Part shown: piece by piece, positions 5,901 through 59,974 of the stretch
Layout of the letters: every line of letters starts with the position of its first letter
Numbering within the stretch: position 1 is the first letter of the stretch
NCBI GenBank assembly: GCA_046758965.1
Contig: JBHIBG010000003.1
Coordinates: 13,829 to 77,828, forward strand
Direction of reading: 5' to 3'
Length of the DNA stretch: 64,000 nt
Source: Candidatus Methylomirabilia bacterium
Lineage (GTDB): Bacteria; Methylomirabilota; Methylomirabilia; Rokubacteriales; CSP1-6
The notes under the pieces: generated by a model
The model's database searches: none
What the model was told of the DNA's origin: nothing
Seen by the model: the letters and a program-made list of their open reading frames with translations, nothing else
Position numbers and translations under genes: made by a program

Positions 5901-6378
5901 AGTGAGTCGGGAGCGTCGAGGACTTCGAGAACGGGTCATCCCCGGCGAGAGCGAGGACTCCGCCGTACCGGCCGACCCCGGCGAAGTTGGCGTGCCTGAA
6001 GATGTCGCCGCTGCGGTCGACCCCCGGCGCCTTGCCGTACCAGATCCCGAGCACGCCGTCGTACTTCGGCTTCGGATACAGGTTGGCGAGCTGGCTCCCG
6101 AAGATGGCGGTCGCGCCGAGGTCCTCGTTGACGCCCGAGATGAAGACGACGTGGTGCTGCCGGAGGAGCTCCCGGTTACGCTCGAGAGTGATGTCGAGTC
6201 CGCCGAGAGGGGAGCCGCGGTACCCGGAGATGAGGGTGGCGGTGCGAAGCCCCCGGCGCCTGTCGGCCCGGTGCTGGTCCAGAGGCAGCCGGACGAGCGC
6301 CTGGATCCCCGAGAGAAAGATCAGCCCCTCTTCCCGGTCGTACTTGGAGTCCAGCGACAAGCGCGTGGTGCTCAGCAT
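2914..6378 (-). CDS. indolepyruvate/2-oxoacid:ferredoxin oxidoreductase, fused alpha-beta (IorA/IorB family)
   Basis: 1154-aa protein with a TPP-enzyme-like N-terminal region, the 4Fe-4S ferredoxin motif CEGCGDCGAKSNC, and a C-terminal IorB-like region. This is the typical fused ~1150-aa IOR family protein. Confidence 0.85.
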   Translation of the reverse strand: MLSTTRLSLDSKYDREEGLIFLSGIQALVRLPLDQHRADRRRGLRTATLISGYRGSPLGGLDITLERNRELLRQHHVVFISGVNEDLGATAIFGSQLANLYPKPKYDGVLGIWYGKAPGVDRSGDIFRHANFAGVGRYGGVLALAGDDPFSKSSTLPTHSEVAFYDLLFPVLFPGSVQEVLDLGRLGFELSRYSGLWVGFKIVTDVADEVGTAEVSPNRVGVADPGFIYDGQPWRARQNPMLLPPFALETEREIHYGRLEAAKAFAAANGLNRISVPTPDAWLGIAAPGKTYYDLRQALQELGLDDHALRRYGIRLLKIGMLFPMEPGIVREFGRGLEELLVIEEKRAFTELFIRDILYDQAERPRVVGKRDEQGGVLVRADGELDADAIARIVAVRLERRLHLESITARVALLEALRERPTPLTLARQPYFCSGCPHNRSTVVPEGSLAGGGIGCHGMALAMNRGTVGITHMGGEGAQWVGIAPFTEMPHMFQNLGDGTLFHSGSLAIRQAVAAGTNITYKILYNSSVAMTGGQDAAGAVGVPGLTRQLEAEGVKRIIVMTDEPRAYPRGARWAAGVEIWHRDRLDEGQRMLRETPGVTALIYDQRCAAEKRRLRKRGKLPDPAMRIFINEAICEGCGDCGAKSNCLSVHPVETEFGRKTQIHQSSCNKDYSCLLGDCPSFLTVIPLGEPRKQERKGYAVDRELPEPALKVSRNPNLFLMGIGGTGVVTVNQILGTAALLDGRHVRGLDQTGLSQKAGPVVSHLKMSDRPSEVSNRIAAGEADCYLAFDILVATNPQHLDRARPDKTIAVVSTSQVPTGAMVSSTGVQFPDESGLITAINRLTRKDENVLVDALGLAEALFNDHMAANMILLGAAYQAGAIPVSAAAIEEAIALNGVAVQMNTQAFGVGRLLVADPEWVKTVERPRLGAVEVRPALTDEARALVDSVGATGELRRLLELRVPELIAYQSAAYARRYVEFVKQVVAAERAAAPGESRLSEGVARHLFKLMAYKDEYEVARLHLKPELAEALAAEFPGGVRIQYHLHPPILRALGWKRKVKLGKWFDRVFRLLVALRALRGTAADPFGYAKLRRVERALIGDYQVLVEKALASLSPESYERAVKLATLPDLIRGYEEIKLRSVERFWAEVRALGF

Positions 6379-8242: not shown

Positions 8243-9554
8243 GGCCCGCTCCGCCGAGTCCGGGGAAGTGTGCCTGTGGCTCGTCGAGGAGGGCCGCCGC
8301 CACCACCACCCGCTCCACGCCGATCTCCAGCTCCCGGACCCACACCTGATCCGCCCCCGTCCTGGGGCCTCCCACCACCAGCACCCACCGCGCCCGCTGC
8401 CGGGCGGCGTAGGCCAACGACTCCTCGAGCCCCCGGGTGATGATGTCGCGCGCGACGGTGGCTCCCAGGCTGCGGAGCCGCCGCGACAGGGAGAGCGCGA
8501 CGGTTTTCTCCTGGGTGAAGTCGATGATGAAGAAGTCGGGGCCGGGGAGCGGCACCACCACGCCCTGCGCCTCCATGGCGAGCAGGATCCGGTCCACGTC
8601 GAAGGCGAACCCCGTGGCCGGGCAGTCGAAGCCGAAGCGGCCCAGCATCTGGTCGTAGCGGCCGCCGCCGCAGAGATCCGTGCCGAGACCCGCGACGTAC
8701 CCTTCGAAATGGACCCCGGAGTAGTAGTCGAACCCCCGGACCTCTCCCAGGTCCAGAATGATCGAGTCGGACAGGCCGTAGACGCAGAGGAGGCGATAGA
8801 CCTCCGCCAGGTTGGCCAGGGCGCGTTCGGACCGGGGATTCTTGACCAGGCCGCCGGCCCGCTCGAGCACCTCCTCCCGGCCGAAGAGCCCCGGAAGCGC
8901 CAGCAGCAGCTCGGCGGTGGCCGCCGGCGGAGAGAGCGCCGCGACGAGCTGCTCGAGGGCCGAGCCGTCCTTGCGCGAGAGCGCCTGCTGAAGCTCCCGT
9001 CCCCGCAGCCGGTCCGTCCGGAGCTCCTCGAGGATGCCGCGGAAGAAGTCGGCCTGGCCAACGTTGATCTGGAACTGCCCGAGGCCGAGCGCGCGGAGCC
9101 CCTCCACCGCCATCGCCACCATCTCCGCATCGGCCTCCGGCTGTTCGAGCCCCACGAGTTCCACGCCGGCCTGATAGAACTCCCGGTGGCGACCCAGCTG
9201 AGGATCGTCGTAGCGGAAGACATTTCCCACGTAGGCCAGCCGAAGGGGCTTCGGCTGATCCCTCAACCGTGTCGCGACGACGCGGGCGATCTGCGGCGTG
9301 ATGTCGGCGCGAAGCGCCAGCATCCGGCCCGTCTCCCGGTCCACGAGCTTGAACATCCGCTCCTGAAGGTCCGCATCGGTTCCCAGGGAGAGGACGTCAA
9401 AGTACTCGTAGGTGGGAGTCACCACCTCCCGGAACCCCCATTGGCGAAAGACGGAGAGGACGCGCTCTTCCACGTAGCGCTTGCGCGCCGCCTCGTCGGG
9501 CAGGTAGGTCTTGGCTCCCTTGGGGAGCTGGCTCGGGAGGACACGCCGGTCCAT
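8235..9554 (-). CDS. hisZ: ATP phosphoribosyltransferase regulatory subunit (HisS paralog)
   Basis: 439-aa class-II aaRS-like catalytic core (histidyl-tRNA synthetase-like) without an anticodon-binding domain. The conserved hisZ-purA gene pair is present. Confidence 0.8.
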   Translation of the reverse strand: MDRRVLPSQLPKGAKTYLPDEAARKRYVEERVLSVFRQWGFREVVTPTYEYFDVLSLGTDADLQERMFKLVDRETGRMLALRADITPQIARVVATRLRDQPKPLRLAYVGNVFRYDDPQLGRHREFYQAGVELVGLEQPEADAEMVAMAVEGLRALGLGQFQINVGQADFFRGILEELRTDRLRGRELQQALSRKDGSALEQLVAALSPPAATAELLLALPGLFGREEVLERAGGLVKNPRSERALANLAEVYRLLCVYGLSDSIILDLGEVRGFDYYSGVHFEGYVAGLGTDLCGGGRYDQMLGRFGFDCPATGFAFDVDRILLAMEAQGVVVPLPGPDFFIIDFTQEKTVALSLSRRLRSLGATVARDIITRGLEESLAYAARQRARWVLVVGGPRTGADQVWVRELEIGVERVVVAAALLDEPQAHFPGLGGAGRA

Positions 9555-9556
9555 GG

Positions 9557-10225
9557 CTAAGCCTGCCGGGGGACGAGTGGCTCCGCGGCGCCCGTGGCCT
9601 CCCCCCGGGAGCCGTCCAAGTGAGCGAGCGTGTTGATCCGGTGCACGGTCACCCCGCCCCTCCGATACTCGAGCTCCGAGATACCCGTGGATGCCGCGTG
9701 AATGGACCAGAGCTCGGCAGGCGGCAGGCCGAGGGCCTCGAGGACGAGAAGCCGGATCGCGACCCCATGGGTGACCAGGCAGACGGTCTCCCCCGCGTGC
9801 GCCGCTCTGAGGCGCATGAGCCCCTCCAGCACGCGCCCCCGCACCTGAGCCAGGCTCTCTCCGTCCGGCATCGTGACGACCTGGGGACGCTCCTCCCAGG
9901 CCGCATACAGGTCGGGGAACTGAGCCTGCACTTCGGCCGCGGTAAGCCCCTCCCAGAGGCCGTGGCAGATCTCCCGGAAGGCAGGGTCGACGATGACAGG
10001 GAGAGCGTGAGGCCGGGCGATAGCCGCCGCCGTCTCCTGAGCCCGGCTGAGCGGGCTGGCGTAGATCGCCTTCAGCGGGAAGTCAGCCAGCGCACAACAG
10101 GCGGCCTCGGCCTGAGCCCGCCCCTCGGCGGACAGAGGGATATCCAGGCAGCCCTGGTAGCGCAACTCCCGGTTCCACTCAGTGAGGCCATGTCTCAGCG
10201 CGATCAGGCGAAAGCCCATCGTCAC
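9557..10225 (-). CDS. histidine phosphatase family protein (phosphoglycerate mutase-like)
   Basis: N-terminal LRHGLTEWN (the RHG catalytic motif). Protein is 222 aa. Confidence 0.75.
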   Translation of the reverse strand: MTMGFRLIALRHGLTEWNRELRYQGCLDIPLSAEGRAQAEAACCALADFPLKAIYASPLSRAQETAAAIARPHALPVIVDPAFREICHGLWEGLTAAEVQAQFPDLYAAWEERPQVVTMPDGESLAQVRGRVLEGLMRLRAAHAGETVCLVTHGVAIRLLVLEALGLPPAELWSIHAASTGISELEYRRGGVTVHRINTLAHLDGSRGEATGAAEPLVPRQA

Positions 10226-12179: not shown

Positions 12180-13763
12180 CTACAGCTTGACGAGCTTGGC
12201 CGAAACGATGTCGGGCATCGCCCGGATTTCGGCCAGCACCGGGTCGGGGATGGGATCGTCCAGGTTGAGGATCGACACCGCCCGACCTCCCCGGCGCTCG
12301 CGGCCGAGCCGCATGCCGGCGATGTTGATCTGGTGGAGACCGCAGAGCGTGCCGATCCGGCCGATGACGCCGGGCACGTCCAAGTTGGAGAAGATCAGCA
12401 TCCACCCCGAAGGGACCGCCTCCAGGGGATAGCCGTCGATCCGGAGAATCCGGGGCTCTCGCCGGTGGAAGAGCGTGCCGGCCACCCCCCAGGCGCCCCT
12501 GTCGGTCGAAAGCTCGGTCGAGATCAAGCTCGCGTAGTCCTCGCACTCGGTGGCGGAGGCTTCCACCACGCGGATTCCCCGGGCCTTGGCCAGGGTTGGC
12601 GCGTTCACGTCGGTGACGTTCTCCTCCAGGATCACGGAGAGGAGCCCTTTGAGGAAGGTGACGGTGAGAAGCTCGGTTTTCAGCCCCGCCACCTCCCCGG
12701 CGTACTCGATTCGCGCCTCCCGCATCCGACCTTCGGCGATCTGAGCGAGAAAGCTCCCCAGCTTTTCCGCCAGCATCAGGTAGGGCGCCAACTCCTTGTA
12801 GGTCTCGGCGTCTACCGACGGGACGTTCACGGCGTTCCGCGTGATCCCCCGCACCAGGACATCGGCGACCTGCTGGGCGATGGCGAGGGCCACCTGGGTC
12901 TGGGCCTCCTCGGTGGAGGCGCCCAGATGGGGGGTGATGACCATCTGATCCAGGGCGAGCAGCGGGTGGTCCGGTGGGAGCGGCTCCAGCTCGAAGACGT
13001 CGAGCGCGGCGCCGGCCACGCGTCCGCTCTCGATCGCTTCGATCAGGGCCATCTCGTTGATGACCCCGCCGCGGGCGCAGTTGATCAGGCGGACGCCCTG
13101 CTTCATCCGGGCGAACTGGGCCGGGCCGAGGAAGTTCCGCGTCTCCTTGGTGAGCGGCGTATGGACGGAGATGAAGTCGGAGCGCTCGAGGAGCTCATCC
13201 AGCTCGACCACCTCCACCCCGATCTTCTGCGCGGTCTCAGCAGTCAGGTAAGGGTCGTAGGTGATGACCTGCATGCGAAGCCCGAGGGCGCGCCGGGCCA
13301 CCTCCGAGCCGATCCGGCCGAGCCCGATGATCCCGAGGATCTTGTTGTAGAGCTCGACGCCGGCGAAGCGCGCCTTCTCCCACCTGCCGCCCTTGAGCGC
13401 CCCGTGGGCCTGGGGGAGCTTCCGGGCCAGGGCCAGGAGAAGGCCGATCGCGTGCTCGGCCACCGCGATGGTGTTGGCCCCGGGAGCGTTCATCACGATG
13501 ATCCCGCGCTGGCTGGCCGCCTCGACATCAATGTTGTCCACGCCGGCTCCGGCTCGCCCCACGACGACCAGATCGCGGGCCGCCTCCAGGACCTTGGCGG
13601 TCACCTTGGTGGCGCTGCGCACGATCAGCCCCTCGACATCCGCGATCCGGCCGCAGAGCTCGGCTTCGGGGAGCGCGCCGGCCACCTCGACCAGAAGACC
13701 CTCCTTGCGGAGGGCCTCACCGCCGACCTCGTGGAGCCCGTCGGTGATAAGCACTTTCTTCAT
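12180..13763 (-). CDS. serA: D-3-phosphoglycerate dehydrogenase
   Basis: 527-aa 2-hydroxyacid dehydrogenase with the GxGxxG NAD motif (GLGRIGSEVA) and a C-terminal ACT-like region. Confidence 0.9.
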   Translation of the reverse strand: MKKVLITDGLHEVGGEALRKEGLLVEVAGALPEAELCGRIADVEGLIVRSATKVTAKVLEAARDLVVVGRAGAGVDNIDVEAASQRGIIVMNAPGANTIAVAEHAIGLLLALARKLPQAHGALKGGRWEKARFAGVELYNKILGIIGLGRIGSEVARRALGLRMQVITYDPYLTAETAQKIGVEVVELDELLERSDFISVHTPLTKETRNFLGPAQFARMKQGVRLINCARGGVINEMALIEAIESGRVAGAALDVFELEPLPPDHPLLALDQMVITPHLGASTEEAQTQVALAIAQQVADVLVRGITRNAVNVPSVDAETYKELAPYLMLAEKLGSFLAQIAEGRMREARIEYAGEVAGLKTELLTVTFLKGLLSVILEENVTDVNAPTLAKARGIRVVEASATECEDYASLISTELSTDRGAWGVAGTLFHRREPRILRIDGYPLEAVPSGWMLIFSNLDVPGVIGRIGTLCGLHQINIAGMRLGRERRGGRAVSILNLDDPIPDPVLAEIRAMPDIVSAKLVKL

Positions 13764-14901
13764 GACTTGTCTGTCAGGACCTTCTGGGCCGCGCGGATCG
13801 AGGTGCCCAGATCAACGGGGTGCCCGAGCTCCGCCAGCACCTGCTCGAGCGCTGACAGCGCCACGATCACGTCGAAGTCGCCCACGTACCCCATGTGGCC
13901 GAGACGGACGAGCGTGCCCTTCATCTCCCCCTGCCCGCCCGCGATGGTGATGTTGTGGGTCTTCGCGAACCCCTTCACCACCACCTCGCCGTCGATCCCC
14001 CGCGGTGCGACCAGGGCGGTGATCGCCGGGCTCGGGGTGGCCTTCGCGAAGAGCTCGAGCCCCAGCGCCTCGACCCCCGCGCGCGTGGCGCGGGCCAGCC
14101 GGTCGTGACGCCGGAAGAGACTCGCGAGCCCCTCGGCCTCCAGCATGGTGAGGGCCTGACGAAGCCCGACGATGATGGAGACCGCAGGGGTGAAGTGGGC
14201 CTGGTTCTTCTGCTGCGCCTCGAGCTCTTGAGCCAGGTCGAAGTAGTACCTGGGGAGCGTGGAGTCCTTGGCCAGCCGCCAGGCCTTCGCGGAGAGCGCG
14301 CAGAACGCGAGCCCGGGCGGGAGCATGAGCCCCTTCTGGGAGCCGGCCACCACGAAATCCACGCCCCAGGCGTCCATGGGGAGGTCGGCCACGCCCAGAC
14401 TGGAGACGGCGTCCACCACCAGGATCGCGGGGGTGGTCCGGGTCACCCGAGCATAGCCTTCCACATCATGCAGGACGCCGGTGGACGTCTCGCTGTGCTG
14501 GCAGAAGACCGCCTTGACCCCGGGACTCTTCCTGAGCTCCTCGGCCAGCCGATCCGGAGGCACGGTGTGGCCATAGGGAGCCTCCAGCGGGATCACCTCG
14601 ACCCCGTAAGCCTGGCAGATCTCAGCCCACCGCTCGCCGAACTTCCCCGCCCGAACCACGATCGCGCGGTCGCCGCGACAGAGCATGTTGACGACAGCGG
14701 CCTCCATGGCGCCTGTGCCGGAGGCGGCGAAGAGGACGGGCTCCTCGCGGGTCTGAACGAGCCTCTTGAGCCCGGCGCGAACCTCGCTGAAGAGCGCCTC
14801 GTAGGCCGGCGTGCGGTGGTGGATGATGGGCTGGGCCATCGCGAGGAGCACTTCCTGGGGGACCGGCGTGGGCCCCGGCGCCATCAGGTAATACTTCTTC
14901 A
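13760..14901 (-). CDS. class V aminotransferase (serine-pyruvate / phosphoserine aminotransferase type)
   Basis: Starts MKKYYLMAPGPTPVP, preceded by an AAAGGAGA Shine-Dalgarno. PLP-lysine region GSQKGLMLPPG. Its 4-nt overlap with serA suggests an operon. Confidence 0.8.
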
Positions 14902-14964
14902 TCGTTTCTCCTTTCGGGATCGCTTTGTGAACGCTATCACACAGTCTCGGGCCGCGCAATCCTG

Positions 14965-14982: not shown

Positions 14983-15477
14983 GCTGAAGCTCACTTGTTG
15001 TTTTTCAAAGGGCACGTTCCAAAGCATACCATCGAGCACCTTCGCTCAACATTTGAAGGAGTTTCCCCACCGATTCCCGAGCCAGATATGGTCTCCGGGC
15101 CCAGCCCGTGAGAACTCTCGCTCACCCCCAGCAGACGGTCCTCTTCGTGTCTCACCTATCGGCGCTCTCCCTGTTTCCACGGCCCTCCAGCATCGCCTCC
15201 ACCGGCCCAGGATTCGAATCTCAGGCTTACCCCTGTCTCCTCTTCTCCCAAATCTGAGACAATTACGAATCGGGTGGACGCCCACGCAGCGGCCGGAAGG
15301 GACCCTAGCTCTCCCTGGCCGAAGCCGCTACCACGGCCGTTCGTGACTACGATAAGCCGCCAGGAGGCGTGGCCCCGTCAACCCCTAAAACTCCAGGAGG
15401 GCGAGGATTGGTCTTCATGATGTGGTCGTGGTCATGCACCCACAGGCTCGAACCGGCTTGACAGGAGTATAACAATT

Positions 15478-15873
15478 TTGTTATCTTCTGGAGGCGGGTG
15501 GGAGATCGACGATGTGCGCACAGACCAGGGTCGACGGCCGGTCAAGGAGTTCTTCGACGGGCTATCGAAAGGAGCCAAGGCGAAGGTCTATGCGGCGCTC
15601 ACGATGCTCGAACGAGAGGGCAACCGTCTCGGGTTCCCGAAATCCAAAAGCTTGGGGCAGGGACTTCACGAGTTGCGAATCCCGCACCCGCAGGGGCCGT
15701 TCAGGATTATTTACTGCTTTCAGCCCGACCGACGTGTCGTTTTGCTCCATGCCTTTGTAAAGCGAACGGAGCAGATACCGGGGCGTGAGCTTGAATTAGC
15801 ACGGAAGAGAAAACCTCGTCAAATCAGAGTGAGAAGAAGTGGGGGGAAACCATGGCTAGGCGAAGGACCCTGA
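15478..15873 (+). CDS. type II toxin, HigB/RelE-like (phage Gp49 family)
   Basis: Motifs WEIDD...KEFFDGL...LGQGLHELRIPHPQGPFRIIYCF...RRVVLLHAFVKRTEQIP. A TTGACA -35-like box and an AGGAG sit upstream. The start is probably the TTG at 15478, but that is uncertain. Confidence 0.7.
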   Translation: MLSSGGGWEIDDVRTDQGRRPVKEFFDGLSKGAKAKVYAALTMLEREGNRLGFPKSKSLGQGLHELRIPHPQGPFRIIYCFQPDRRVVLLHAFVKRTEQIPGRELELARKRKPRQIRVRRSGGKPWLGEGP

Positions 15874-16175
15874 TGGACGAAATTCACAAGGAACTCAGGA
15901 GCGATCGTGAGCTCAACGCGCTCTACCAGAGGGAGCTGGCACGCCTTCAATTGGCAAACCAGATCGTGAAGGTGCGAGAGCGAGCCCGACTAAGCCAAGC
16001 GGCCCTTGCGCGACTTGTCGGGACTCGGCAATCAGGTATCGCCCGGATGGAGCGAAGCGCCTACACGGGCTACACCGTGGCGACGCTCGCAAAGATCGCA
16101 GCCGCTACCGGCTGCACGCTCGATGTGAGGCTGGTCGTTCCCAAGAGCAGGGCCGCCACACTCGCCGGTCGCTGA
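15852..16175 (+). CDS. HTH XRE-family antitoxin (HigA-like)
   Basis: 107-aa protein with a helix-turn-helix (LSQAALARLVGTRQSGIARME). It overlaps the toxin gene by 22 nt. Confidence 0.75.
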   Translation: MARRRTLMDEIHKELRSDRELNALYQRELARLQLANQIVKVRERARLSQAALARLVGTRQSGIARMERSAYTGYTVATLAKIAAATGCTLDVRLVVPKSRAATLAGR

Positions 16176-16349: not shown

Positions 16350-17897
16350 TCACTTCGTGTGGGGCCGGAGCGAGACCGTGGTGCGAGGGGCGCTCTTGAC
16401 CGAGCGGCCCAGGGCGGTCACGAAGAGGGCGTCCTTCCCTTCGGCGTGGGGGGCGAAGAAGCCCACCACCTCGCCGTCGTAGTACGTGAGCCCGGAGGCG
16501 CCAAATCCGCAGGCGTAGGCTGCCAGGTAGCAGCGGCCCCCGATCAGCCCCGCCTCCAGGTTGGCCAGGCGGTAGCCCCGGTTGCCGTAGTGTCGGAGGA
16601 TCGGGGTCAGCCCGGCGAGGAAGAAGACCACGACACTGGCGTCGGCGGCGAGCTCCTGTTCCAGGCAGAGATAGCCGGCCCGAGCCCGGAACTCTCCCGC
16701 CCTGACAAGCTCCAGTCCGTGCGCCCCCCACGAGTAGCAGTACGCGCCGGGCCGAAGCCCCTCCACGGCGTTCACGATGAGGTAGAGATCGACGAGCCCG
16801 GAGGGAAAGTCAGCCGGGAACCCGCGCGTGGCGTGGAAGAGGACCGTGGAGAGCTCCTCAGAGGTGATCGGCTCTCGCGCGAACTCGCGCGTCGAGGCGC
16901 GCCGAAGGATGGTCTCTCCCAGGCTCTGCCCCGACCGGCTCTTCGAAGCAGGGAGCGGCAGAAGATCTCCCGGCGGGGCGGGCCGCCGGGCTCCCGCCCC
17001 CATCCGCCACTGGCTCACTTCGCCGGAATCCGCGAGCGTCGAGGCCGTGTGCATCTGCCTGAGGAGCGGGTAGTCCACCTCGCGCTTCGAGAGCGGGAGG
17101 TAGGAGGGAGCGATCTCCTCCACGCGCGGGGGCCGAGGCGCCTCCGTGCCCTCGCCTCCCACGGCCACCAGCTCGAGGCTCCCTTCTTTCTCGACCTCGA
17201 GGCCCAGGAGCCTGTTCACCCGGTCGTCCACGAAGCCGGCGACGATCCGGGCGGGGAACCCGGCCCCGGCCGCCACGCTCATCAGATTTGCCAGCATGGT
17301 CCCCGAGTCCCAGAAGAGGTGGCGGTACGCGCGCGCTTCGTACTTCCAAGCGTTCCGCCAGTAGATGGCCGTGAGCGCCAGGATGGCGGGAGCGCGGGCG
17401 ATGGCGGGATCAGAAGCCGCCTCGGCCAGCTCCTGACGGAAGTCCCCCTCTCTGAGCCGACGGAGCGAGAAGTCGCCGGGGCAGAAGTGATAGACACCCG
17501 CCGCAAGGTCCGGGACCGCCCCGGCTACGACATAGACTTCGGTTTGATAGAGCGCCCCGGTGGAAGGAGCCGCGCGGAAATGGATCGACTCCCCGCCGGG
17601 GTAGCTCTTCTTCTTGGTGATCGCCGCCGAGAAGAAGAGCAGGGTGGCGAGCCCATCGAGCGTCAGAGCGTTCGCTCCGGGGCGCCCGCCCGAGAGCGCC
17701 TCGAGCGTGTCGGCGGCCGGCGGGCCGACCTCCCGCGCCAGCTGGATCACGGGGAGGTCGGGGTACACCTTGTAGAGGAACGGCTTCGTCTCCCAATCCA
17801 GATAGTGGCCGCTCTGGCGGACCGACCACTCGCTGTGGGCGGTCTCGTCGTGATAGTGCCGAGCGACCTGGATGTCGCGATTCGCGCCTGCGCTCAC
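16350..17897 (-). CDS. SagB/ThcOx-type dehydrogenase (tandem nitroreductase-like domains)
   Basis: N-terminus is VSAGANRDIQVARHYHDETAHS... and the protein has two nitroreductase-fold halves, as in TIGR03605 proteins. The GTG start at 17897 overlaps the mtnA stop (GTGA). The upstream extension in the track ORF, to 18311, is an artefact. Confidence 0.7.
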   Translation of the reverse strand: MSAGANRDIQVARHYHDETAHSEWSVRQSGHYLDWETKPFLYKVYPDLPVIQLAREVGPPAADTLEALSGGRPGANALTLDGLATLLFFSAAITKKKSYPGGESIHFRAAPSTGALYQTEVYVVAGAVPDLAAGVYHFCPGDFSLRRLREGDFRQELAEAASDPAIARAPAILALTAIYWRNAWKYEARAYRHLFWDSGTMLANLMSVAAGAGFPARIVAGFVDDRVNRLLGLEVEKEGSLELVAVGGEGTEAPRPPRVEEIAPSYLPLSKREVDYPLLRQMHTASTLADSGEVSQWRMGAGARRPAPPGDLLPLPASKSRSGQSLGETILRRASTREFAREPITSEELSTVLFHATRGFPADFPSGLVDLYLIVNAVEGLRPGAYCYSWGAHGLELVRAGEFRARAGYLCLEQELAADASVVVFFLAGLTPILRHYGNRGYRLANLEAGLIGGRCYLAAYACGFGASGLTYYDGEVVGFFAPHAEGKDALFVTALGRSVKSAPRTTVSLRPHTK

Positions 17898-18913
17898 TTC
17901 GAAAAGTCGTACGGGGGCCGGAAGACACCTCGCTCGGTCACGATGGCGGTGACCAGGGCGGCCGGGGTCACGTCGAAGGCGGGGTTGAAGACCGGAGAGG
18001 CGCCGGGCGCGATGAGGTCGCCACCGATCCCCCGGATCTCGCGCGGATCCCGCTCCTCGATCGGGATGAGCGCTCCGGAGGCGAGGCTCGGGTCGACCGT
18101 CGAGACCGGCGCGGCCACGTAGAAGGGCAGGCCGTGGTGCCGGGCCAGCACCGCCAGGCCGTAGGTGCCGATCTTGTTGGCCGTGTCGCCGTTGGCGGCA
18201 ATGCGGTCGGCCCCCGTGATGATCAAGTCCACCTGCCCCTGAGCCATGAGGCTCGCAGCTGCCGCATCCGCGATGACCCGGTGAGGGATCCCCTCTTTGA
18301 GGCATTCCCACGCGGTGAGGCGGGATCCCTGAAGCACCGGCCGGGTCTCGTCCACCCAGAGGAGGGCGACCTTGCCCTGAATGTGGGCGGCCCGAACAAC
18401 GCCGAGCGCCGTGCCGTAGCCGGCGGTGGCCAGGGCGCCGGTATTACAGTGGGTGAGGATCCGCGCGCGAGCCGGAATCAGCGCTGCCCCGTGCTGCCCC
18501 AGCGCGCGGTTGGCCGCCACGTCCTCTTCCAGCACCGTCTGGGCCTCGGCCAGGAGCCTGGCCCTGAGCTCACCCAGGGGCAAGCTCCGGTGGTCAAGGG
18601 CGACGCGGCGCAGTCGCTCCAGCGCCCAGAAGAGGTTGACCGCGGTGGGTCGCGTGGCGGCGAGCTCCTTGATGGCCACTTCCAGGTCGCCGAGCAAGCC
18701 GTCGAACGTAGCGGCGGGACTCTCACGGGCAGCCAGGGCCACCCCGAAGGCCGCGGCCACACCGATGGCGGGAGCGCCCCTGACCCGGAGCGTCCGGATG
18801 GCCTCGGCGACCGCGCGCCACTCCCCGCAACCCCACTCGACCTCCTCTGCGGGGAGCCGGGTCTGGTCGAGGAGCACTAAGCGGTCCCCTCTCCAGCGGA
18901 CCGGGGCGATCAC
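17894..18913 (-). CDS. mtnA: S-methyl-5-thioribose-1-phosphate isomerase (eIF-2B alpha/beta/delta family)
   Basis: 339-aa protein with full-length MtnA/e2B2 similarity (GAPAIGVAAAFG ... CNTGALAT ... GADRIAANGD). Confidence 0.85.
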   Translation of the reverse strand: MIAPVRWRGDRLVLLDQTRLPAEEVEWGCGEWRAVAEAIRTLRVRGAPAIGVAAAFGVALAARESPAATFDGLLGDLEVAIKELAATRPTAVNLFWALERLRRVALDHRSLPLGELRARLLAEAQTVLEEDVAANRALGQHGAALIPARARILTHCNTGALATAGYGTALGVVRAAHIQGKVALLWVDETRPVLQGSRLTAWECLKEGIPHRVIADAAAASLMAQGQVDLIITGADRIAANGDTANKIGTYGLAVLARHHGLPFYVAAPVSTVDPSLASGALIPIEERDPREIRGIGGDLIAPGASPVFNPAFDVTPAALVTAIVTERGVFRPPYDFSK

Positions 18914-18951: not shown

Positions 18952-19488
18952 TCAGCTCGCCCCGGGCCCTTCATCGGCCAGCTCCTGGGCGATGAGCGTC
19001 TGGTACATGTCGACAGTCGACCGAAGGCCTTCGGCGAGCTGGCGGCGGGTGCGCTTCAGCATCAGGATGTCGTTCTGGATCTTGGCTGCCTCCGCTCGCG
19101 CCTCCTCCATGAGCTTCTCTCCCTGGAGCTCGGCATCCCGGAGCAGGAACTGGGCCTCTTTCCGGGCGGAGTCCCTCAGCTCCTCAGCTGCACGCCCGGA
19201 CGACTCCCTCAGCTCCTCAGCCTCCCGCCGGGCGGTCTCCTTCAGCTCCTCAGCCAGCCGCTGGCTGGTGAGCAGCGTCTCCTTGATCGTCCGCTCGAGG
19301 TCCTTGTAGCCGCGCGCCCGCTCCTCGGAGGCCGCCAGCTGCTCCTTGAGCAAGCTGTTCTCCCTCAGGAGGTGCTCGTAGTCCTCGGCCACCTCATTGA
19401 GGAAGGTGTCCACCTCGTCCATGTCGAAGCCGCGGAACAGCTTGACCGAAAATTGCTGTTGACGAATGTCCGGGGGACTGATGCGCAT
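18952..19488 (-). CDS. divIVA: DivIVA domain cell-division protein
   Basis: N-terminal DivIVA motif (ISPPDIRQQQFSVKLFRGFDMDEVDTFL) followed by coiled-coil. Confidence 0.85.
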   Translation of the reverse strand: MRISPPDIRQQQFSVKLFRGFDMDEVDTFLNEVAEDYEHLLRENSLLKEQLAASEERARGYKDLERTIKETLLTSQRLAEELKETARREAEELRESSGRAAEELRDSARKEAQFLLRDAELQGEKLMEEARAEAAKIQNDILMLKRTRRQLAEGLRSTVDMYQTLIAQELADEGPGAS

Positions 19489-19509: not shown

Positions 19510-19749
19510 TCATCGGGCCAGAAGCCCCTGAAGGATAAAAATGATGAGAATAGCAATCATCGGGGAGAGATCCAGCCCGATCTGCCGGGTGGGAAGGAGA
19601 TCCCGGATAGGGCGGAGCACCGGCTCAGTCGCTTGGTAGAGAAACCGCACGATCGGATTGGACGGGTCGGGGTTTATCCAGGAAAGGAGCGCCCGGGCAA
19701 TGATGATCCACATGTAGACCATCAGCAGCGTGTTCAGGAGGTTGGCCAC
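19510..19749 (-). CDS. yggT: YggT family membrane protein (YlmG/Ycf19)
   Basis: 79-aa two-TM protein with the YggT-family signature. Confidence 0.8.
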   Translation of the reverse strand: MANLLNTLLMVYMWIIIARALLSWINPDPSNPIVRFLYQATEPVLRPIRDLLPTRQIGLDLSPMIAILIIFILQGLLAR

Positions 19750-19757
19750 GGCGACAC

Positions 19758-20579
19758 CTACTTCCCTTGCCCCAGCTCTCGCGAGCGGAGGGTGGCACGC
19801 TCCACCGCATCGATGAAAGCGTGACGGACACGCCCCTCTTCCAGGGCAGCGATCCCCTTGATGGTGGTCCCGCCCGGCGAGGCGACCATATCCTTGAGCT
19901 GGCCCGGGTGAGCGCCGGTCTCGAGCAGGAGCCGGGCCGACCCGAGGACGGTCTGGGTCGCGAGCGTCATGGCTGTCGCCCGGTCGAGCCCCATCTTCAC
20001 TCCGCCGTCGGCCAACGCCTCGATCACAATGGCGACATAGGCCGGCCCCGAGCCCGAAAGGCCGGTGACCGCATCGATCTGGCCTTCCTCGAGCAGCACC
20101 ACCTTGCCCACGGCTTCGAAGATCTCCCGGGCAGTCTCCAGATCTCCCGGCCTGAGCCTTTCGGCTCGCGCGATGGCCGTGGTGCCCTCCAGCACCAGCG
20201 CCGGGGTGTTCGGCATGACGCGGATCAGGCGCACGCCTTCGGGGAGGAGGGCTCTGAGCGTAGAGGTCGAGACGCCGGCGGCAATGGAGATGACGAGCTT
20301 CTCCGGGCTGACAGTGGGGGCCACCTCGGTCAGGGCAGCGGCGATCACCTGGGGCTTCAGGGCGAGGACGATGACGTCGGCGCGTTTCACCAGGAGCGCG
20401 TTGTCCTCCACCGTCTGGATCCCGTAGAGCTCTCGCAGCTGGTCCAGGCGATCGAGCCTGACGTCGGCGGCGAAGATGGACTCGGCAGCGACCGTGCCGG
20501 CCCTGAGCAGGCCCTTGATCAGCGCCTCCCCCATGTTGCCGGCGCCGAGCAGGCCGATCGTCTTGCCCTTGATGCTCAT
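19758..20579 (-). CDS. proC: pyrroline-5-carboxylate reductase
   Basis: 273-aa ProC. It has the N-terminal Rossmann motif GLLGAGNMGEAL and the dimerisation domain. Confidence 0.9.
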   Translation of the reverse strand: MSIKGKTIGLLGAGNMGEALIKGLLRAGTVAAESIFAADVRLDRLDQLRELYGIQTVEDNALLVKRADVIVLALKPQVIAAALTEVAPTVSPEKLVISIAAGVSTSTLRALLPEGVRLIRVMPNTPALVLEGTTAIARAERLRPGDLETAREIFEAVGKVVLLEEGQIDAVTGLSGSGPAYVAIVIEALADGGVKMGLDRATAMTLATQTVLGSARLLLETGAHPGQLKDMVASPGGTTIKGIAALEEGRVRHAFIDAVERATLRSRELGQGK

Positions 20580-20583: not shown

Positions 20584-21288
20584 TCAGTCGGAGAGGGGTT
20601 CGCCCCCCTGCCGAGACCGTGGCGGCCTCGGGCCGAAGATGGCCGTGCCCACGCGGACCATGGTGGCGCCCTCTTCCACGGCCACCTCGAACTCTCCGGT
20701 CATGCCCATGGAGAGGTGCGTGAGACCGGCCTGGTCGCGAAGCTCACGGAGCTGGCGGAACCAGGGCCGGGCCGCCTCGGGATCCTCGACGGGCGGGGGC
20801 ATCGTCATCAGCCCGAGCACCCGGAGACCCGGAAGGGCTCCGACCGCCTCCAGGGCCGGCTTCAGCTCATCGGGGGCGAAACCGGCCTTCGTCTCCTCCC
20901 CCGCGACGTTGACCTGGACGAGCGCATCGATGACCTTCCCTTCGGCCTGAGCCCGGCGATCGAGCTCTCGCGCCAGCTCCAGGCGGTCCACAGAGTGAAT
21001 CAGGTCAAACAGCCGCACGGCCTCCCTCACTTTGTTGGTCTGGAGTGTCCCGACCAGATGCCAGGGAACCGGACGGCCGAGGTGGGCGATCTTCGCCTTC
21101 GCCTCCTGCACCCGGTTTTCCCCCACGGCCCGTACCCCCGCGGCCAGGGCCTGGCGGATGCGCTCGACATCCACGGCCTTGGAGACCGCCACCAGCAGGA
21201 CCTCCTCCGGCTCCCGGCCCACCCGTCGGGCGGCCCGGTCAATCCGCGCCTCCACCGCCCGCAGATTCGCCGCTACGTCAACCGTCAT
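20584..21288 (-). CDS. yggS: YggS family pyridoxal phosphate homeostasis protein (YlmE)
   Basis: The likely start is the internal M (MTVDVAANL...). Contains the PLP-lysine region VAVSKAV and HLVGTLQTNK. Confidence 0.85.
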   Translation of the reverse strand: MTVDVAANLRAVEARIDRAARRVGREPEEVLLVAVSKAVDVERIRQALAAGVRAVGENRVQEAKAKIAHLGRPVPWHLVGTLQTNKVREAVRLFDLIHSVDRLELARELDRRAQAEGKVIDALVQVNVAGEETKAGFAPDELKPALEAVGALPGLRVLGLMTMPPPVEDPEAARPWFRQLRELRDQAGLTHLSMGMTGEFEVAVEEGATMVRVGTAIFGPRPPRSRQGGEPLSD

Positions 21289-21401
21289 CCCCCGCTCGCG
21301 GGGCTCATTGTAGCAACCCTCGCCCCTGTAGAACAAGACGCGGTGGCACAACGAAAGAAGATCCTTGACTTCGACACGGCCGCGCAGGAAGTTCTCCTCA
21401 C

Positions 21402-22181
21402 ATGCTCTTTTCTGGGAGGCGTTGGAGGAGTCGCCGGCTCTGGGCTCTCGCGCTGCTACTGGCCCCCTCGGTCGCAGCTGCCGAGACCGCGGCCGTGCGG
21501 CGGGTGCTCGATGGGGACAGCATCGTGCTGACCGACGGGCGCGCGGTCAGGTACCTCGGCATCAACGCGCCCGAGCGGGGGCAACCGTTTCATGCCCAGG
21601 CTCGACAGCTCAACCGGATCCTGACGAAAGCCGGGAGAGTCCGCCTGGAGTTCGATCGGGTGCGTCTGGACCGCTACGGGCGGCTCCTGGCGTATGTCTA
21701 TGTCGGAGCCGAGATGGTGAATGCCAGACTCCTCCACGAGGGGCTGGCTCATCTCTTCATCATTCCCCCGAACCTCAAGCACTACGAGCGGTTCCTGAGG
21801 CTCCAGGAGGCCGCACAGAGAGCCCGCCGGGGCATGTGGCGGCAGACCTCGGGCCCGGCGAAGATCACGAAGGTGGAGCTCGGGCTCCGGGGCCCCGAAC
21901 ACGTCAGGATTGCGAATGTGTCAGCCCGCCCGCTGGATCTGGCCGGCTTCAGGCTCTCCGATCGCGCCCGGCACAGCTATCGCTTCCCGTCCGTGGTGCT
22001 GAACCCCGGCTACGTCCTCACGCTCAGGAGTGGCGCAGGCGCCGACCTCAGAGCCCGCTCCGGACCGATCCTGCTCCACTGGCACTCCCCGGGACCGATC
22101 TGGAATAACAGCGGCGACACCGCATTCCTCTTCGGTCCCGACGGCAGGCTGATCGACCGTTTCGAGGCCCGCCCGCGCTGA
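21402..22181 (+). CDS. secreted thermonuclease (SNase-like) with C-terminal lamin-tail (LTD) domain
   Basis: Signal peptide (LWALALLLAPSVAAA). SNase core (RVLDGDSIVLTDG...VRYLGINAPE...RLDRYGRLLAYVYV). The C-terminal beta-rich LTD-like segment reads NVSARPLDLAGFRLSD. Confidence 0.7.
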   Translation: MLFSGRRWRSRRLWALALLLAPSVAAAETAAVRRVLDGDSIVLTDGRAVRYLGINAPERGQPFHAQARQLNRILTKAGRVRLEFDRVRLDRYGRLLAYVYVGAEMVNARLLHEGLAHLFIIPPNLKHYERFLRLQEAAQRARRGMWRQTSGPAKITKVELGLRGPEHVRIANVSARPLDLAGFRLSDRARHSYRFPSVVLNPGYVLTLRSGAGADLRARSGPILLHWHSPGPIWNNSGDTAFLFGPDGRLIDRFEARPR

Positions 22182-22689: not shown

Positions 22690-23468
22690 CTCGCGGATCG
22701 GCGGCCGACGGGGATCGAGGCCAGCGTGAGGAGGCGGCCACTCGATCCCTCCTTGCGGTAGGAGCAGAAGAGGTCCCGGCGGCATGAGGTGCAGAGCCTC
22801 GGGTTGAGGATCCGCTCCGGGCTCACCCCCGCAGCCGCCAGCTGGAACTCGTTCGCCTGCCAGAGGTCCAGCATCCACTTCCCCGGACTCACGGCGCGCG
22901 CCCACCCTTCCCACGCGTGAGGGAATGCCTCCCCGAGTGGCTCGATCACCGGACGGTCCACCTCGTAGCAGCAGGGACCGATGGAGGGGGCGATCGCCGC
23001 GAGAAGGTCAGGCAGGCTCGACCCCGCCGCTGCCAGGGCATCGACCGCGGCCCGGGCGGCACCCGCAATGGTCCCGCGCCAGCCGGCGTGGACCACGGCC
23101 AGGAGCGCTCTGACCGGATCGTAGAGGATCAGCGCCAGACAGTCAGCGGCGAAGACGGCGAGCGGGATTCCCGGGGTCGAGGTGAGCAGTACGTCTCCCC
23201 GGCCGGCAGCGCCCCGTTTGGAGCCGTCCGCGCGGATGACGGCGGCCCCGTGCACCTGATCGAGAAAGGCCAGGCGCCTGACCTCAAGACCGTGGCGCCT
23301 CAAGAGATCCCCTGCCTCTAGGCCGATCGGAGCCGCCCGCCTCCCCGCGTGAACGATTCCCGGACAGTGCCGGGTTGTCGAGAGGTGAGGGACGCCAAGC
23401 GCCTCCAGGGCCACGAACGTGAGATGGGTGGGCGGGTCTCCGTGGAGGCGGACGAGCGAGGAGCTCAC
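22686..23468 (-). CDS. pgeF: peptidoglycan editing factor PgeF / YfiH (YlmD; laccase-domain protein)
   Basis: 260-aa protein with conserved His/Cys residues of the DUF152/YfiH family (QVHGAAV ... DCLALIL ... HAGWRG). It sits in the ylmD position after ftsZ. Confidence 0.85.
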   Translation of the reverse strand: MSSSLVRLHGDPPTHLTFVALEALGVPHLSTTRHCPGIVHAGRRAAPIGLEAGDLLRRHGLEVRRLAFLDQVHGAAVIRADGSKRGAAGRGDVLLTSTPGIPLAVFAADCLALILYDPVRALLAVVHAGWRGTIAGAARAAVDALAAAGSSLPDLLAAIAPSIGPCCYEVDRPVIEPLGEAFPHAWEGWARAVSPGKWMLDLWQANEFQLAAAGVSPERILNPRLCTSCRRDLFCSYRKEGSSGRLLTLASIPVGRRSAS

Positions 23469-24589
23469 GGCTCGACTCCGACCGCGGCCAGCGCCGACTC
23501 GTAGCGGGCTCTGAGCCGAGCCCTATCCTGCCCCCAATCGACATGGTCCCAGGGCAGGATCTCTTCCGCCCGCTTTCGCCGGTTCAGGAAGAAGGCTGGA
23601 TTCAGCGGATGCTCCACACAGGCCCGGTCCCAACCGAGGCGACGGGTGGCAAGAAGGAAATCGCCGGCCCGGCGATCGCCGAGCGCCAGGACACCCTCCA
23701 GCATCGCCCATTTGGGGAGGTCGTGCGTCACGGTCACCCCGGGCACCGCCCGGAGGGCCCGGAGTGTGCTGCTGAGCTGGTCCTTGAGCGCCCTTCCGCC
23801 AGGCATCGGCCACCACTGAAGTGGCGTCCAGGGCCGAGGCACGAAGCAGGTGAGGCCCACGCTGAGCGGCGGGAGGCGGCGCTCGTCTCTGAGCCGCACC
23901 ACCAAACAGTGGCGGAGCTTCTTGACCCACTGAGCGATCGACGCCGCCGAGGCAGCCGGCAGGCCCACGGCGAAGCTGAGGAAGATCCGTTCGCCCTCCT
24001 GCACCTGCCCGGCAACCTCTTCGGGACTCGAGATCCTCCCCAAGAGATGCTGGATCTCAGGAGCTGGATGACCCGGGGGCGGAGCCTCATCCCCCTCATC
24101 AAACGGAGTGGCTCCCTCGAGGCCCCGGGGCCATGGCACCCCCGGCCGCGGGATCACGGACGCCACGCTCCCGTCCGCCGCGTAGCGAAGCGCGTAGAGC
24201 GAGGGGACATACACGCCCGAGAGGCGAGCCAACCGCTCGAGCCGCTCAGCTCGCGGTGACCCGCGTGAGGCCTCCAGCTCGGCGAGGACCGCGCGCAGCA
24301 GCGGCCAGCCACCTCCGAGGAGGAGCAGATCCGCCACCACAGCGAGCGGCTCCGGGTTCTCCTGAGGGGTGGCAAGCCAGACGGCAACCAGGGGATCGCG
24401 AGCCTCCCGCTCCTCCTGACTCAAGGCAATCCGTTTGTCAGCGAGGGTGTCCAGGATCGGTAGCCACGTCTTGACGGAGGCGGTGCGCGCTACCAGCACC
24501 TCGGGGCGTCGATCCGGGGGAAGGCGGGTCAGCTCGGGGAATGCCTCTGCCGGCGGAACTGACGGCGCGGTCAGGAACGCAACAGACAT
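23465..24589 (-). CDS. conserved hypothetical protein
   Basis: About 375-aa ORF between ftsZ and pgeF on the same strand, overlapping pgeF by 4 nt. No motif was recognised. The start is uncertain between 24589 and 24670. Confidence 0.45.
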   Translation of the reverse strand: MSVAFLTAPSVPPAEAFPELTRLPPDRRPEVLVARTASVKTWLPILDTLADKRIALSQEEREARDPLVAVWLATPQENPEPLAVVADLLLLGGGWPLLRAVLAELEASRGSPRAERLERLARLSGVYVPSLYALRYAADGSVASVIPRPGVPWPRGLEGATPFDEGDEAPPPGHPAPEIQHLLGRISSPEEVAGQVQEGERIFLSFAVGLPAASAASIAQWVKKLRHCLVVRLRDERRLPPLSVGLTCFVPRPWTPLQWWPMPGGRALKDQLSSTLRALRAVPGVTVTHDLPKWAMLEGVLALGDRRAGDFLLATRRLGWDRACVEHPLNPAFFLNRRKRAEEILPWDHVDWGQDRARLRARYESALAAVGVEP

Positions 24590-24713
24590 GACGAATCGGG
24601 TCTGTTCGAGCCCCGGCTCTTTTGGAACGCCGGCCTTGTTCCGGCGCCGGCTTCGCCGGCGCAACCTCATGGGGGAGGAATCGGAGGGGGCCGTCGAGGC
24701 CCCCTCCGAAGGT

Positions 24714-56563: not shown

Positions 56564-56699
56564 CAGCGACAGTAGCGAGCCGCTCCATGGACAAGAAGAG
56601 ACGCGAGGCCGAATGGGCCGAGGCAAAGCGCCGATGTCGCCTGAATGCCGAGACCCTGCAGATGGCGAAGGAGCTGCGGCTCAACCCACGAACGGAAAG

Positions 56700-57272
56700 C
56701 TGACCGCCTGGCCGCTCACTTCATCATCGACTTTTCCCGAAATCAGATAGTGGTTCGAGGCGGTAAGGGCAACAAGGACCGCTATACGATGCTTCCCGCA
56801 GCAGTCAAAGAACTCCTGCTGCAGCACCTCCAGGCGGTCAAACGCCGGCACGACGATGACCTCAAGCGCGGCCTCGGCCGGGTCGGCTTGCCCAACGCCC
56901 TCGAACGCAAATACCCAAACGCGGGGAAAGCACGGGGATGGCAGTGGCCGCTTCCCGCCTCAAGCCATTACACCGATCGGGTGACGGGAGAACGGCGCCG
57001 CCACCACATCCACGAATCGGTTCTCCAGAGGGCGATTAAAGAGGCCAGGCTCAAAGCCGGCATTGTGAAGCCAGCCAGCTCCCACACGTTGCGGCATTCC
57101 TTCGCCACTCGCCTGCTCGAGCATGGTTACGAACCCTGACCGTCCAGGAGCTCCTGGGCCACAGCGATGTCAGCACAACGATGATCTACACCCATGTTTT
57201 GAACCGGGGCGGCAGAGGAGTTCGCAGCCCGGCGGATGCGCTGACCATGGCGGTCAATCCGTCGCAGCCATA
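56700..57272 (+). pseudogene. intI: integron integrase (IntI) remnant, 5'-truncated and frameshifted
   Basis: QIVVRGGKGNKDRY and the IntI-specific insertion LPNALERKYPNAGKARGWQWPLPA...RRHHIHE...[21 protein letters not shown] are present. A frameshift near 57137 then continues in another frame as [31 protein letters not shown]. The N-terminal ~170 aa are absent. Confidence 0.75.
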
Positions 57273-57901: not shown

Positions 57902-57917
57902 AGCAGCGGTGGTGAGC

Positions 57918-57989: not shown

Positions 57990-58012
57990 CGCCGAAGTAA
58001 CACGTAGACGCA

Positions 58013-58260: not shown

Positions 58261-58262
58261 CG

Positions 58263-59973: not shown

Positions 59974-59974
59974 C

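Follow-up and report, generated by a model that had tools for sequence, protein, structure and literature searches.

The stretch of DNA analysed here (below, the window) comprises 64,000 nucleotides of contig JBHIBG010000003.1 of Candidatus Methylomirabilia bacterium and carries, on its minus strand, a gene for a SagB-type flavoprotein (hereafter sagB) whose GTG start codon overlaps the stop codon of mtnA, the gene for S-methyl-5-thioribose-1-phosphate isomerase. We consider it probable that the product of sagB is an unexceptional member of a family of fused SagB-clade proteins that is large, broad in phylogenetic range, and functionally uncharacterised, and that the coupling of the gene to mtnA is an operon arrangement fixed in one lineage. 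This reading is carried by the tandem architecture of the protein and by a comparison of over 200 loci drawn from four lineages of phylum rank, in which no recurrent partner gene was found. The elements that matter most are these:

16350–17897, minus strand: sagB-like gene with a GTG start, encoding a 515-residue fused tandem nitroreductase-fold (SagB-clade) flavoprotein, as read from the translation
17157–17663, minus strand: N-terminal SagB domain, residues ~79–247 (the best stretch of model TIGR03605, 79–247), the azoline-oxidase-like half
17340–17348, minus strand: Lys-Tyr motif W184-K185-Y186, translating as WKY, in the N-terminal half only
16404–16934, minus strand: C-terminal nitroreductase-fold domain, residues ~322–498 (alignment with domain 2 of the structure 3EO7, 327–498)
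16887–16904, minus strand: RxSxR motif of the flavin mononucleotide (FMN)-phosphate type, R332-R-A-S-T-R337, translating as RRASTR, in the C-terminal half only
17894–17897, minus strand: GTGA stop/start overlap of mtnA and sagB, predicted from the sequence to couple their translation
17894–18913, minus strand: mtnA, S-methyl-5-thioribose-1-phosphate isomerase, 339 residues, by model TIGR00512

Architecture and distribution of the fused family

The Pfam model PF00881 matches the protein in two stretches (82.9 bits), as does TIGR03605 ('SagB family peptide dehydrogenase'), a model of the 'domain' type rather than an equivalog, which is passed with 179.3 bits (cutoff 78.4). These paired matches support the first-pass annotation of this DNA, which had described a SagB-clade tandem nitroreductase-fold protein. 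The N-terminal half aligns with residues 318–465 of ThcOx and 115–251 of McbC; it is 27% identical to the C-terminal half (BLASTP, E = 2e-4), which makes the latter a divergent duplicate. When the Protein Data Bank (PDB) sequences were searched with phmmer, the full-length two-domain match was 3EO7 (E = 2.8e-54), followed by half-length matches to ThcOx (E~1e-9), McbC (2e-6), BmdC, and 3HJ9, the last two falling on the C-terminal half. An AlphaFold2 model (pTM 0.86, mean pLDDT 78.7) gave the same ranking in Foldseek, with 3EO7 placed first among the PDB entries over 529 columns (TM scores of 0.73/0.77, 27% identity) and ThcOx, BmdC, and McbC, again half-length, as the nearest characterised structures after it.

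The family to which this protein belongs is large. Word-indexed matches number more than 4,936. At E ≤ 1e-3, there are 15,250 representatives of clusters at 50% identity; at E ≤ 1e-30, there are 1,796, and almost every one of the best 150 is a full-length protein of about 500 residues. One scan found at least 577 GTDB species loci, and a metagenome scan, with a 4-sequence alignment as its query, found 532 loci of a low-GC archaeal-type clade; each collection scan covers the best 80 loci. Members of the family, with chains of about 500–520 residues, occur in Rokubacteria/NC10, in Terriglobia, in Nostocales cyanobacteria, and on low-GC soil contigs.

Outside NC10, the gene has no constant company. 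About 30 Terriglobia loci, with homologs of about 50% identity, lack an mtnA gene within 10 kb and are mostly bounded by gaps of more than 100 nt or by genes on the opposite strand. All-against-all clustering of the neighbours of 34 bacterial loci without mtnA found no neighbour family in more than 6 of them, and a census of 129 flanking genes, taken with Pfam, yielded 139 families, YcaO not being among the recurrent ones. In the four cyanobacterial genomes compared (Anabaena, Richelia, Calothrix, and one more), the gene stands in four unrelated monocistronic contexts, with mtnA not adjacent; the cyanobacterial homologs share about 30% identity with the window protein (27% in the structural alignment). 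The family is strongly conserved there: its proteins are 77–98% identical within the Nostocales (roughly 80% across the order), and about 78% identity is kept in the reduced genome of Richelia. The 80 low-GC soil contigs (L090–L169, GC 28–52%) carry a homolog of 41–47% identity with no mtnA nearby, and, by sequence inspection, the neighbouring ORFs resemble an archaeal-type Sm-like protein, a Tag glycosylase, and an aldo-keto reductase. These contigs probably derive from ammonia-oxidising Thaumarchaeota, in which case the family spans Bacteria and Archaea. Neighbour clustering of the archaeal-type loci (n = 80) gave synteny at the level of subclades only.

A universal conserved partner, as a candidate explanation, was rejected on the basis of the neighbour clustering and the Pfam census, both of which gave synteny only at the subclade level. 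A gene for MetH, which in Terriglobia lies two genes downstream of sagB and would have been a second link to methionine, was likewise set aside as a coincidence, being present only at the near-identical loci L058 and L060; the recurrent neighbour of about 1,150 residues in other loci is unrelated to MetH and, by sequence inspection, resembles an outer-membrane receptor.

The two halves of the protein differ in their conserved motifs, which were counted as alignment columns over 126 diverse full-length representatives of the family, the window protein included. In the N-terminal half, residue 185 is Lys in 104 of the 126 and Arg in 18, and Y186 is conserved in 122; K185-Y186 aligns exactly with the 'FWKY' of ThcOx and the 'LFKY' of McbC. 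The same half conserves R108, G114, L116-Y117, and E120, which together form the SagB signature (R-x-x-[PAS]-[SC]-x-G-x-L-Y here, 'RPYPSGGALYxxE' in ThcOx and McbC), as well as W180-R181, R189, and R192. In the C-terminal half, R333 (125/126), S335 (124/126), and R337 (121/126) are nearly invariant and are aligned to the 'TRRSIR' of ThcOx by a weak HMMER domain (3.7 bits). The RxSxR motif has no equivalent in the N-terminal half, and the position of the Lys-Tyr pair is occupied in the C-terminal half by a variable pair of residues.

RxSxR is the usual FMN-phosphate motif, and the Lys-Tyr pair of the dehydrogenases that act on thiazole/oxazole-modified microcins (TOMMs) is required for azoline oxidation. 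Because the Lys-Tyr pair is found only in the N-terminal half and RxSxR only in the C-terminal half, one composite active site per polypeptide would be expected, and the motifs suggest that fusion has produced a pseudo-dimer with just that one site. The halves would pack in the manner of a nitroreductase homodimer and build just one complete FMN site, in which the C-terminal half would hold the FMN and the Lys-Tyr pair of the N-terminal half would act as acid/base. The reaction of the enzyme might then be a two-electron flavin redox step whose substrate is a diffusible small molecule, rather than a peptide azoline made by a YcaO protein. Such a reaction could be a C–C or C–N dehydrogenation, as in the azoline oxidases, or, in the reverse direction, a reduction driven by NAD(P)H or a deazaflavin.

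A further position deserves mention. Residue 112 (nt 17562–17564), which follows the R-A-A-[PAS] segment, is Cys in 65 of the 126 representatives and Ser in 43, the window protein having Ser. The position could be redox-active or in contact with the substrate, and could divide the family into two types.

The mtnA-sagB junction and the readings of it

The overlap reported in the first-pass annotation is confirmed. The mtnA gene ends in TTT TCG AAG TGA (the protein ending in FSK), and the GTG of sagB is made up of G17897 and the TG of that TGA, which gives the 4-bp overlap GTGA at 17894–17897. The reading frame of 16350–17897 also stands, although the length of 516 residues previously assigned to its product had included the stop: its 516 codons specify 515 residues and a stop. 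An identical protein annotated at the NCBI (P0001; 100% identity over 100% coverage) is likewise 515 residues long and bears the name 'SagB/ThcOx family dehydrogenase [Ca. Methylomirabilia bacterium]'. Moreover, the 4-nt overlap is also present in an independent Logan contig. The GTG start is not over-extended, because alignments with homologs begin at about residue 6 and the N-terminal motif Y-H-x-x-T-[K/A]-H-S is conserved. The earlier caution that the protein might turn out to be much shorter is thus answered by the NCBI length, the Logan contig, and the homologs together.

No Shine-Dalgarno-like sequence was found in the window directly 5' of the sagB GTG, which is what would be expected for coupling by termination and reinitiation; related loci in which a spacer of 40–50 nt parts the two genes instead have a GGGGAGG-type motif ahead of the sagB start. 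Nor did the minus strand show a sigma-70-like promoter or a terminator-like site between divIVA (the gene upstream of mtnA), mtnA, and sagB. The two genes would be translated from one mRNA via the stop/start overlap, an arrangement conserved in NC10/Rokubacteria, and the overlap supports the earlier view that they are co-expressed. Control of mtnA by a riboswitch or another RNA element was considered and rejected, there being no Rfam match in the window and no promoter or terminator signal within divIVA-mtnA-sagB.

The first gene of the pair is a bona fide mtnA. Its product passes the equivalog model TIGR00512 (432.8 against a cutoff of 279) and fails TIGR00511, the model for ribose-1,5-bisphosphate (R15P) isomerase (187.4 against 314.1). 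In the PDB, it is closest to solved MtnA enzymes (1T9K, 351 bits; 6A34, 344; 2YRF, 291), with R15P isomerases at 132–138 bits and eIF2B at about 50 bits. The first-pass annotation had raised the alternative that the gene might be a paralog of the ribose-bisphosphate isomerase type; on the cutoffs of the models and the ranking of PDB matches, this alternative was rejected.

In NC10/Rokubacteria, the order yggS-proC-divIVA-mtnA-sagB-aminotransferase(-serA) is kept in about 45 of the best 80 GTDB loci. At the 43 NC10 loci where the mtnA/sagB junction could be measured, which span 55–75% identity in SagB, the junction is tight: the 4-bp overlap recurs in 15 and the distance is at most 50 nt in most others. 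Two Methylomirabilia-type loci (L086/L087) keep yggS-proC-yggT-divIVA-yggU-mtnA-sagB, the next gene downstream being one for a zinc-dependent alcohol dehydrogenase (Zn-ADH) rather than the class-V aminotransferase (AT5)-serA pair. The pairing is not obligatory, however. At L021, a 2.7-kb insertion parts mtnA from sagB and contains, by sequence inspection, thioesterase-like, MATE-efflux-like, and HxlR-like ORFs; there is no adjacent mtnA at L036, L044, L025, L070, or L079. Inspection also places an HxlR-like ORF directly upstream of sagB and on the same strand at L021 (9495–9962) and at L036 (1204–1620), the two copies being 90% identical, and, at L044 (Ca. Methylomirabilis sp.), ORFs resembling aldehyde dehydrogenase and VOC proteins. 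On the question of whether the mtnA-sagB pairing is conserved, the answer is thus positive within NC10/Rokubacteria and negative in every other lineage sampled. These comparisons lead us to infer that the coupling represents the fixation of an operon at the tail of a dcw-yggS-proC-yggT-divIVA block in one lineage, and not a shared pathway.

As a separate observation, three loci labelled Nitrosotalea sp. and Candidatus Acidoferrum sp. (L075, L020, and L040) carry the full yggS-proC-divIVA-mtnA-sagB block at Rokubacteria-level identity; they are likely to be mis-binned contigs in those metagenome-assembled genomes (MAGs).

The most direct competitor to lineage-specific fixation is that, in NC10/Rokubacteria, the flavoprotein works in the pathway of MtnA and carries out redox chemistry on 5-methylthioribulose-1-phosphate, 5-deoxyribulose-1-phosphate, or a product derived from them, which would define a variant branch of 5'-methylthioadenosine (MTA)/5'-deoxyadenosine salvage replacing some of the canonical mtnB/C/D steps. 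We regard this as unlikely, although the overlap in the window, the tight junctions in 43 NC10 loci, the identical 4-bp overlap in 15 of them, and the survival of the pair at L086/L087 after the replacement of the downstream genes all speak for it, as does the absence of any other mtn gene found in the 64 kb to partner MtnA. Against it, the homologs in Terriglobia (50% identity), on archaeal-type contigs (41–47%), and in cyanobacteria (~30%) never adjoin mtnA and have no common neighbour, several NC10 loci break the pair (by insertion at L021, and at the five loci named above), and the pair sits within a block of 7–9 unrelated housekeeping genes whose order is equally conserved. Moreover, the canonical route of methionine salvage is not known to require flavin redox chemistry directly after the MtnA step. 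That mtnA and sagB should form a true two-enzyme module, with flavin redox acting on the MtnA product or its immediate derivative in a new salvage branch, seems quite improbable; were it true, thousands of 'orphan' SagB-type proteins, which occur in bacteria and probably in ammonia-oxidising archaea, would gain their first physiological substrate. The recruitment to methylthio-sugar metabolism suggested in the first-pass annotation is possible but unsupported. The chemistry could also be tied to deazaflavins (F420/Fo), with F420H2 as the reductant of the enzyme or a deazaflavin-related metabolite as its substrate, and the adjacency to mtnA would be incidental. F420 or Fo is made by ammonia-oxidising archaea and cyanobacteria, lineages that carry the fused family (in the archaea, probably), and F420 is bound by the nitroreductase-fold domain of FbiB. 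In one Terriglobia subclade, a gene for NpdG, the NADPH-dependent F420 reductase, lies about 35 nt upstream of sagB (L050, L052, L057, and L066, at ~9261–9965) or within 2.5 kb of it (L049 and L056, at ~6.8–7.6 kb); the L050 protein passes the NpdG equivalog TIGR01915 (236 bits against a cutoff of 150), and the other loci are 71–94% identical to it by tblastn. A PPOX-class gene of the F420 type (TIGR03618) is the upstream neighbour at L073 in Blastocatellia, and a PPOX-like fragment follows the sagB-like gene at the end of L140. Yet the adjacency arose independently only two or three times, the scanned ORFs of the window yielded no gene for F420 biosynthesis and none that is F420-dependent, and the conserved RxSxR is the motif usual for FMN phosphate; a deazaflavin-linked enzyme is accordingly a doubtful proposition, with little probability in our estimate. 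Taken together, the scattered neighbours (HxlR, NpdG, PPOX-class F420 proteins, VOC/glyoxalase, and Zn-ADH) point weakly to a role in redox or in the handling of electrophiles.

The remaining possibility is that SagB is a genuine azoline dehydrogenase of a TOMM or linear azol(in)e-containing peptide (LAP) pathway whose YcaO and precursor are encoded elsewhere, that is, a split cluster for a ribosomally synthesised and post-translationally modified peptide (RiPP). This reading, which is very unlikely indeed, draws on the TIGR03605 match, on the azoline-oxidase Lys-Tyr motif conserved in the N-terminal half, and on ThcOx, McbC, and BmdC being the nearest characterised structures after 3EO7. Nevertheless, after GC3-guided gene calling, Pfam scans of essentially all the GC3-supported ORFs of the window found no YcaO (PF02624) and no ThiF/E1-like protein, and a search between 8 and 28 kb found no ORF of 20–100 codons with a Cys/Ser/Thr-rich tail, in agreement with what had been claimed from the sequence at first sight. 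In addition, the recurrent partner that a RiPP enzyme calls for is absent across the loci compared, the context is a housekeeping one rather than a biosynthetic island, and the family is maintained in Richelia and across the Nostocales. The fused architecture is devoid of the RiPP recognition element (RRE)/peptide-clamp domains of ThcOx, similarity to real azoline oxidases is limited to E~1e-9 to 1e-6 over one half, and TIGR04511 is failed (111 against a cutoff of 240). What the window protein has in common with a TOMM dehydrogenase is the SagB signature model and the Lys-Tyr motif; a YcaO partner, a Cys/Ser/Thr-rich precursor, and a single catalytic domain per chain are what it does not have. 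On the strength of the Pfam/NCBIfam scans and the small-ORF search of the window, both of which came back empty, the RiPP reading was rejected; these scans and the contexts in other lineages agree with the earlier view of a standalone enzyme that is not part of a TOMM/RiPP cluster. The earlier view of the missing YcaO as an anomaly, by contrast, does not hold: the fused family is without a conserved partner in every lineage sampled, and the gene of the window causes little surprise because the absence of YcaO is the rule in this family.

Several points nonetheless count against an ordinary family member whose operon became fixed by lineage. The mtnA/sagB junction is tighter and more persistent than would be expected of random neighbours, so a functional link within NC10 is possible, and the pair is kept at L086/L087 despite the different downstream genes. 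The model of a single FMN site is inferred from motif asymmetry. The search for ycaO covers 64 kb of the genome, and a distal ycaO may exist; the scans cover the best 80 loci, and further lineages could have an mtnA or YcaO partner. Finally, the redox and detoxification neighbours are few and restricted to particular lineages, and the association with NpdG is probably a single evolutionary event.

The annotation 'SagB/ThcOx family dehydrogenase' in the absence of YcaO does not testify to a cryptic RiPP cluster, and pipelines for genome mining will over-call when they mark YcaO-less SagB-type genes as TOMM components. The composite-site model, the informative neighbours (mtnA in NC10, NpdG, and HxlR), and tractable hosts such as Anabaena offer handles for the assignment of a function. 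A literature search found no paper linking SagB to MtnA or Rokubacteria to methionine salvage; the NC10-specific coupling thus appears to be unreported and is a legitimate clue, although the other lineages speak against it as a rule of wider validity.

The surrounding window

The window is an ordinary chromosomal housekeeping segment of a Methylomirabilota/Rokubacteria MAG of about 68% GC, in which no tRNA was found. A dcw cluster occupies the minus strand from about 40.7 down to 24.7 kb (mraZ-rsmH-ftsI-murE-murF-mraY-murD-ftsW-murC-murB-ftsA-ftsZ) and is followed, in descending coordinates, by a gene for a Radical_SAM_N2-domain protein, pgeF, a plus-strand nuclease gene, yggS, proC, yggT, divIVA, mtnA, and sagB. 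Below sagB come a plus-strand toxin-antitoxin pair, a class-V aminotransferase gene, serA, and genes for an enoyl-CoA hydratase, a HisZ-like protein, and PurA. The immediate neighbours are as follows:

20584–21351, minus strand: yggS, pyridoxal-phosphate homeostasis protein (TIGR00044, 189.4 against a cutoff of 106)
19758–20579, minus strand: proC, pyrroline-5-carboxylate reductase (TIGR00112, 292.8 against a cutoff of 196.75)
19510–19749, minus strand: yggT/ylmG-like gene for a small membrane protein (from the translation; the orthologous position in L086/L087 is PF02325, CCB3_YggT)
18952–19488, minus strand: divIVA, 38 nt upstream of mtnA (PF05103, 123 bits; syntenic in NC10 loci)
15478–16175, plus strand: toxin-antitoxin pair, with a Gp49/HigB-like toxin (15478–15873, PF05973) and an overlapping Xre-type helix-turn-helix antitoxin (15852–16175, PF13744/PF01381)
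13760–14959, minus strand: class-V aminotransferase, AGXT/SerC-like (PF00266), a conserved downstream neighbour of sagB in Rokubacteria
12180–13763, minus strand: serA, D-3-phosphoglycerate dehydrogenase (TIGR01327, 663.5 against a cutoff of 454; synteny)

The toxin-antitoxin pair, beside which a sigma-70-like promoter match lies at 15458–15487, looks like a recent insertion between sagB and the aminotransferase gene in this genome, because sagB adjoins the aminotransferase gene directly in most related Rokubacteria loci.

Some other genes of the window are worth recording. Between ftsZ and pgeF, the minus-strand ORF at 23465–24670 (401 residues) has only a Radical_SAM_N2 N-terminal domain (E = 1.2e-10) and no recognisable radical-SAM core; a gene of this kind is unusual in the distal part of a dcw cluster. 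The plus-strand gene at 21402–22181 (259 residues), which encodes a fusion of staphylococcal-nuclease and lamin-tail domains, is the sole plus-strand gene to interrupt the dcw/yggS block. The region 53511–61828 has the appearance of a mobile or defence-type patch and contains an SNF2/DEAD helicase with an overlapping partner of 355 residues, a truncated phage-integrase fragment (56645–57139), an ADP-ribosylglycohydrolase, a DUF4160/DUF2442 pair (61288–61828), and two small ORFs in 58263–58727, the upstream one OsmC-like. Near the start of the window, beside the TRAP-transporter genes DctQ/DctM, the minus-strand ORF at 2914–6378 encodes 1,154 residues with POR and DUF6537 domains; judging by this domain content, the protein is possibly an indolepyruvate/2-oxoacid:ferredoxin oxidoreductase.

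Comparison with known systems

The mtnA/K/B/W/X/D operon of Bacillus and the mtnP/K-mtnA-ald2 operons of the dihydroxyacetone phosphate (DHAP) shunt share with the window an isomerase of the bona fide MtnA clade. Unlike in these canonical salvage operons, the partners of mtnA in the window are divIVA upstream and the flavoprotein gene downstream, without an S-box/SAM riboswitch, and no mtnB/C/D/K/P gene or ald2/aldolase gene was found in the scanned ORFs of the 64 kb.

The azoline dehydrogenases SagB, McbC, BcerB, and ThcOx/PatG-ox belong, like the window protein, to the TIGR03605 clade of the nitroreductase superfamily and are presumably FMN enzymes; they share with its N-terminal half the signature R-x-x-PS-x-G-x-LY-x-x-E and the aligned Lys-Tyr pair. 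The dehydrogenases of TOMM, LAP, and cyanobactin pathways are single-domain homodimers, some with an RRE or peptide clamp, whereas the window protein, in which no such domain is seen, would be a fused heterologous pseudo-dimer. They are, moreover, encoded with a YcaO protein and a precursor peptide, in contrast to the housekeeping setting of the window gene.

The chemistry of related flavoenzymes is wider than RiPPs. BmdC, the oxidase of the bacillamide nonribosomal peptide synthetase (NRPS), and the 'FDO' oxidases OxzB and TyzC of acyl-oxazolone biosynthesis (PMC10404671) belong to the nitroreductase superfamily, as the window protein does, and act as oxidases of heterocycles in substrates that are small molecules or of non-ribosomal origin; their partner, encoded close by, is an NRPS module or a ThiF-like cyclodehydratase, and the window offers neither. 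The FDO enzymes are assigned by description to a different, Acg-like subgroup. Outside RiPP biosynthesis, the one report of activity found for a protein of the SagB subgroup concerns the soil-derived SagB1, assigned to that subgroup by its authors, for which nitroreductase activity was demonstrated (PMC10055417).

The closest counterpart is Ava_2154 of Anabaena variabilis, the crystal structure of which dates from 2008 (PDB 3EO7; a JCSG 'putative nitroreductase'). No paper was found in the literature search that gives Ava_2154/3EO7 or the fused family a function, and 3EO7 figures in the literature found only as a failed molecular-replacement model and as a structural comparator. The two proteins, at about 27–30% identity, belong to separate subfamilies: Ava_2154 has Arg-Tyr ('WRY') where the window protein has Lys-Tyr, and its gene is not beside mtnA. 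They are nonetheless alike in length (511 against 515 residues), in their fused two-domain nitroreductase fold, which is collinear in both halves, in the N-terminal Y-H-x-x-T-K, in an RxSxR-type motif (RRSTR in Ava_2154) confined to the C-terminal half, and in being encoded in a standalone context.

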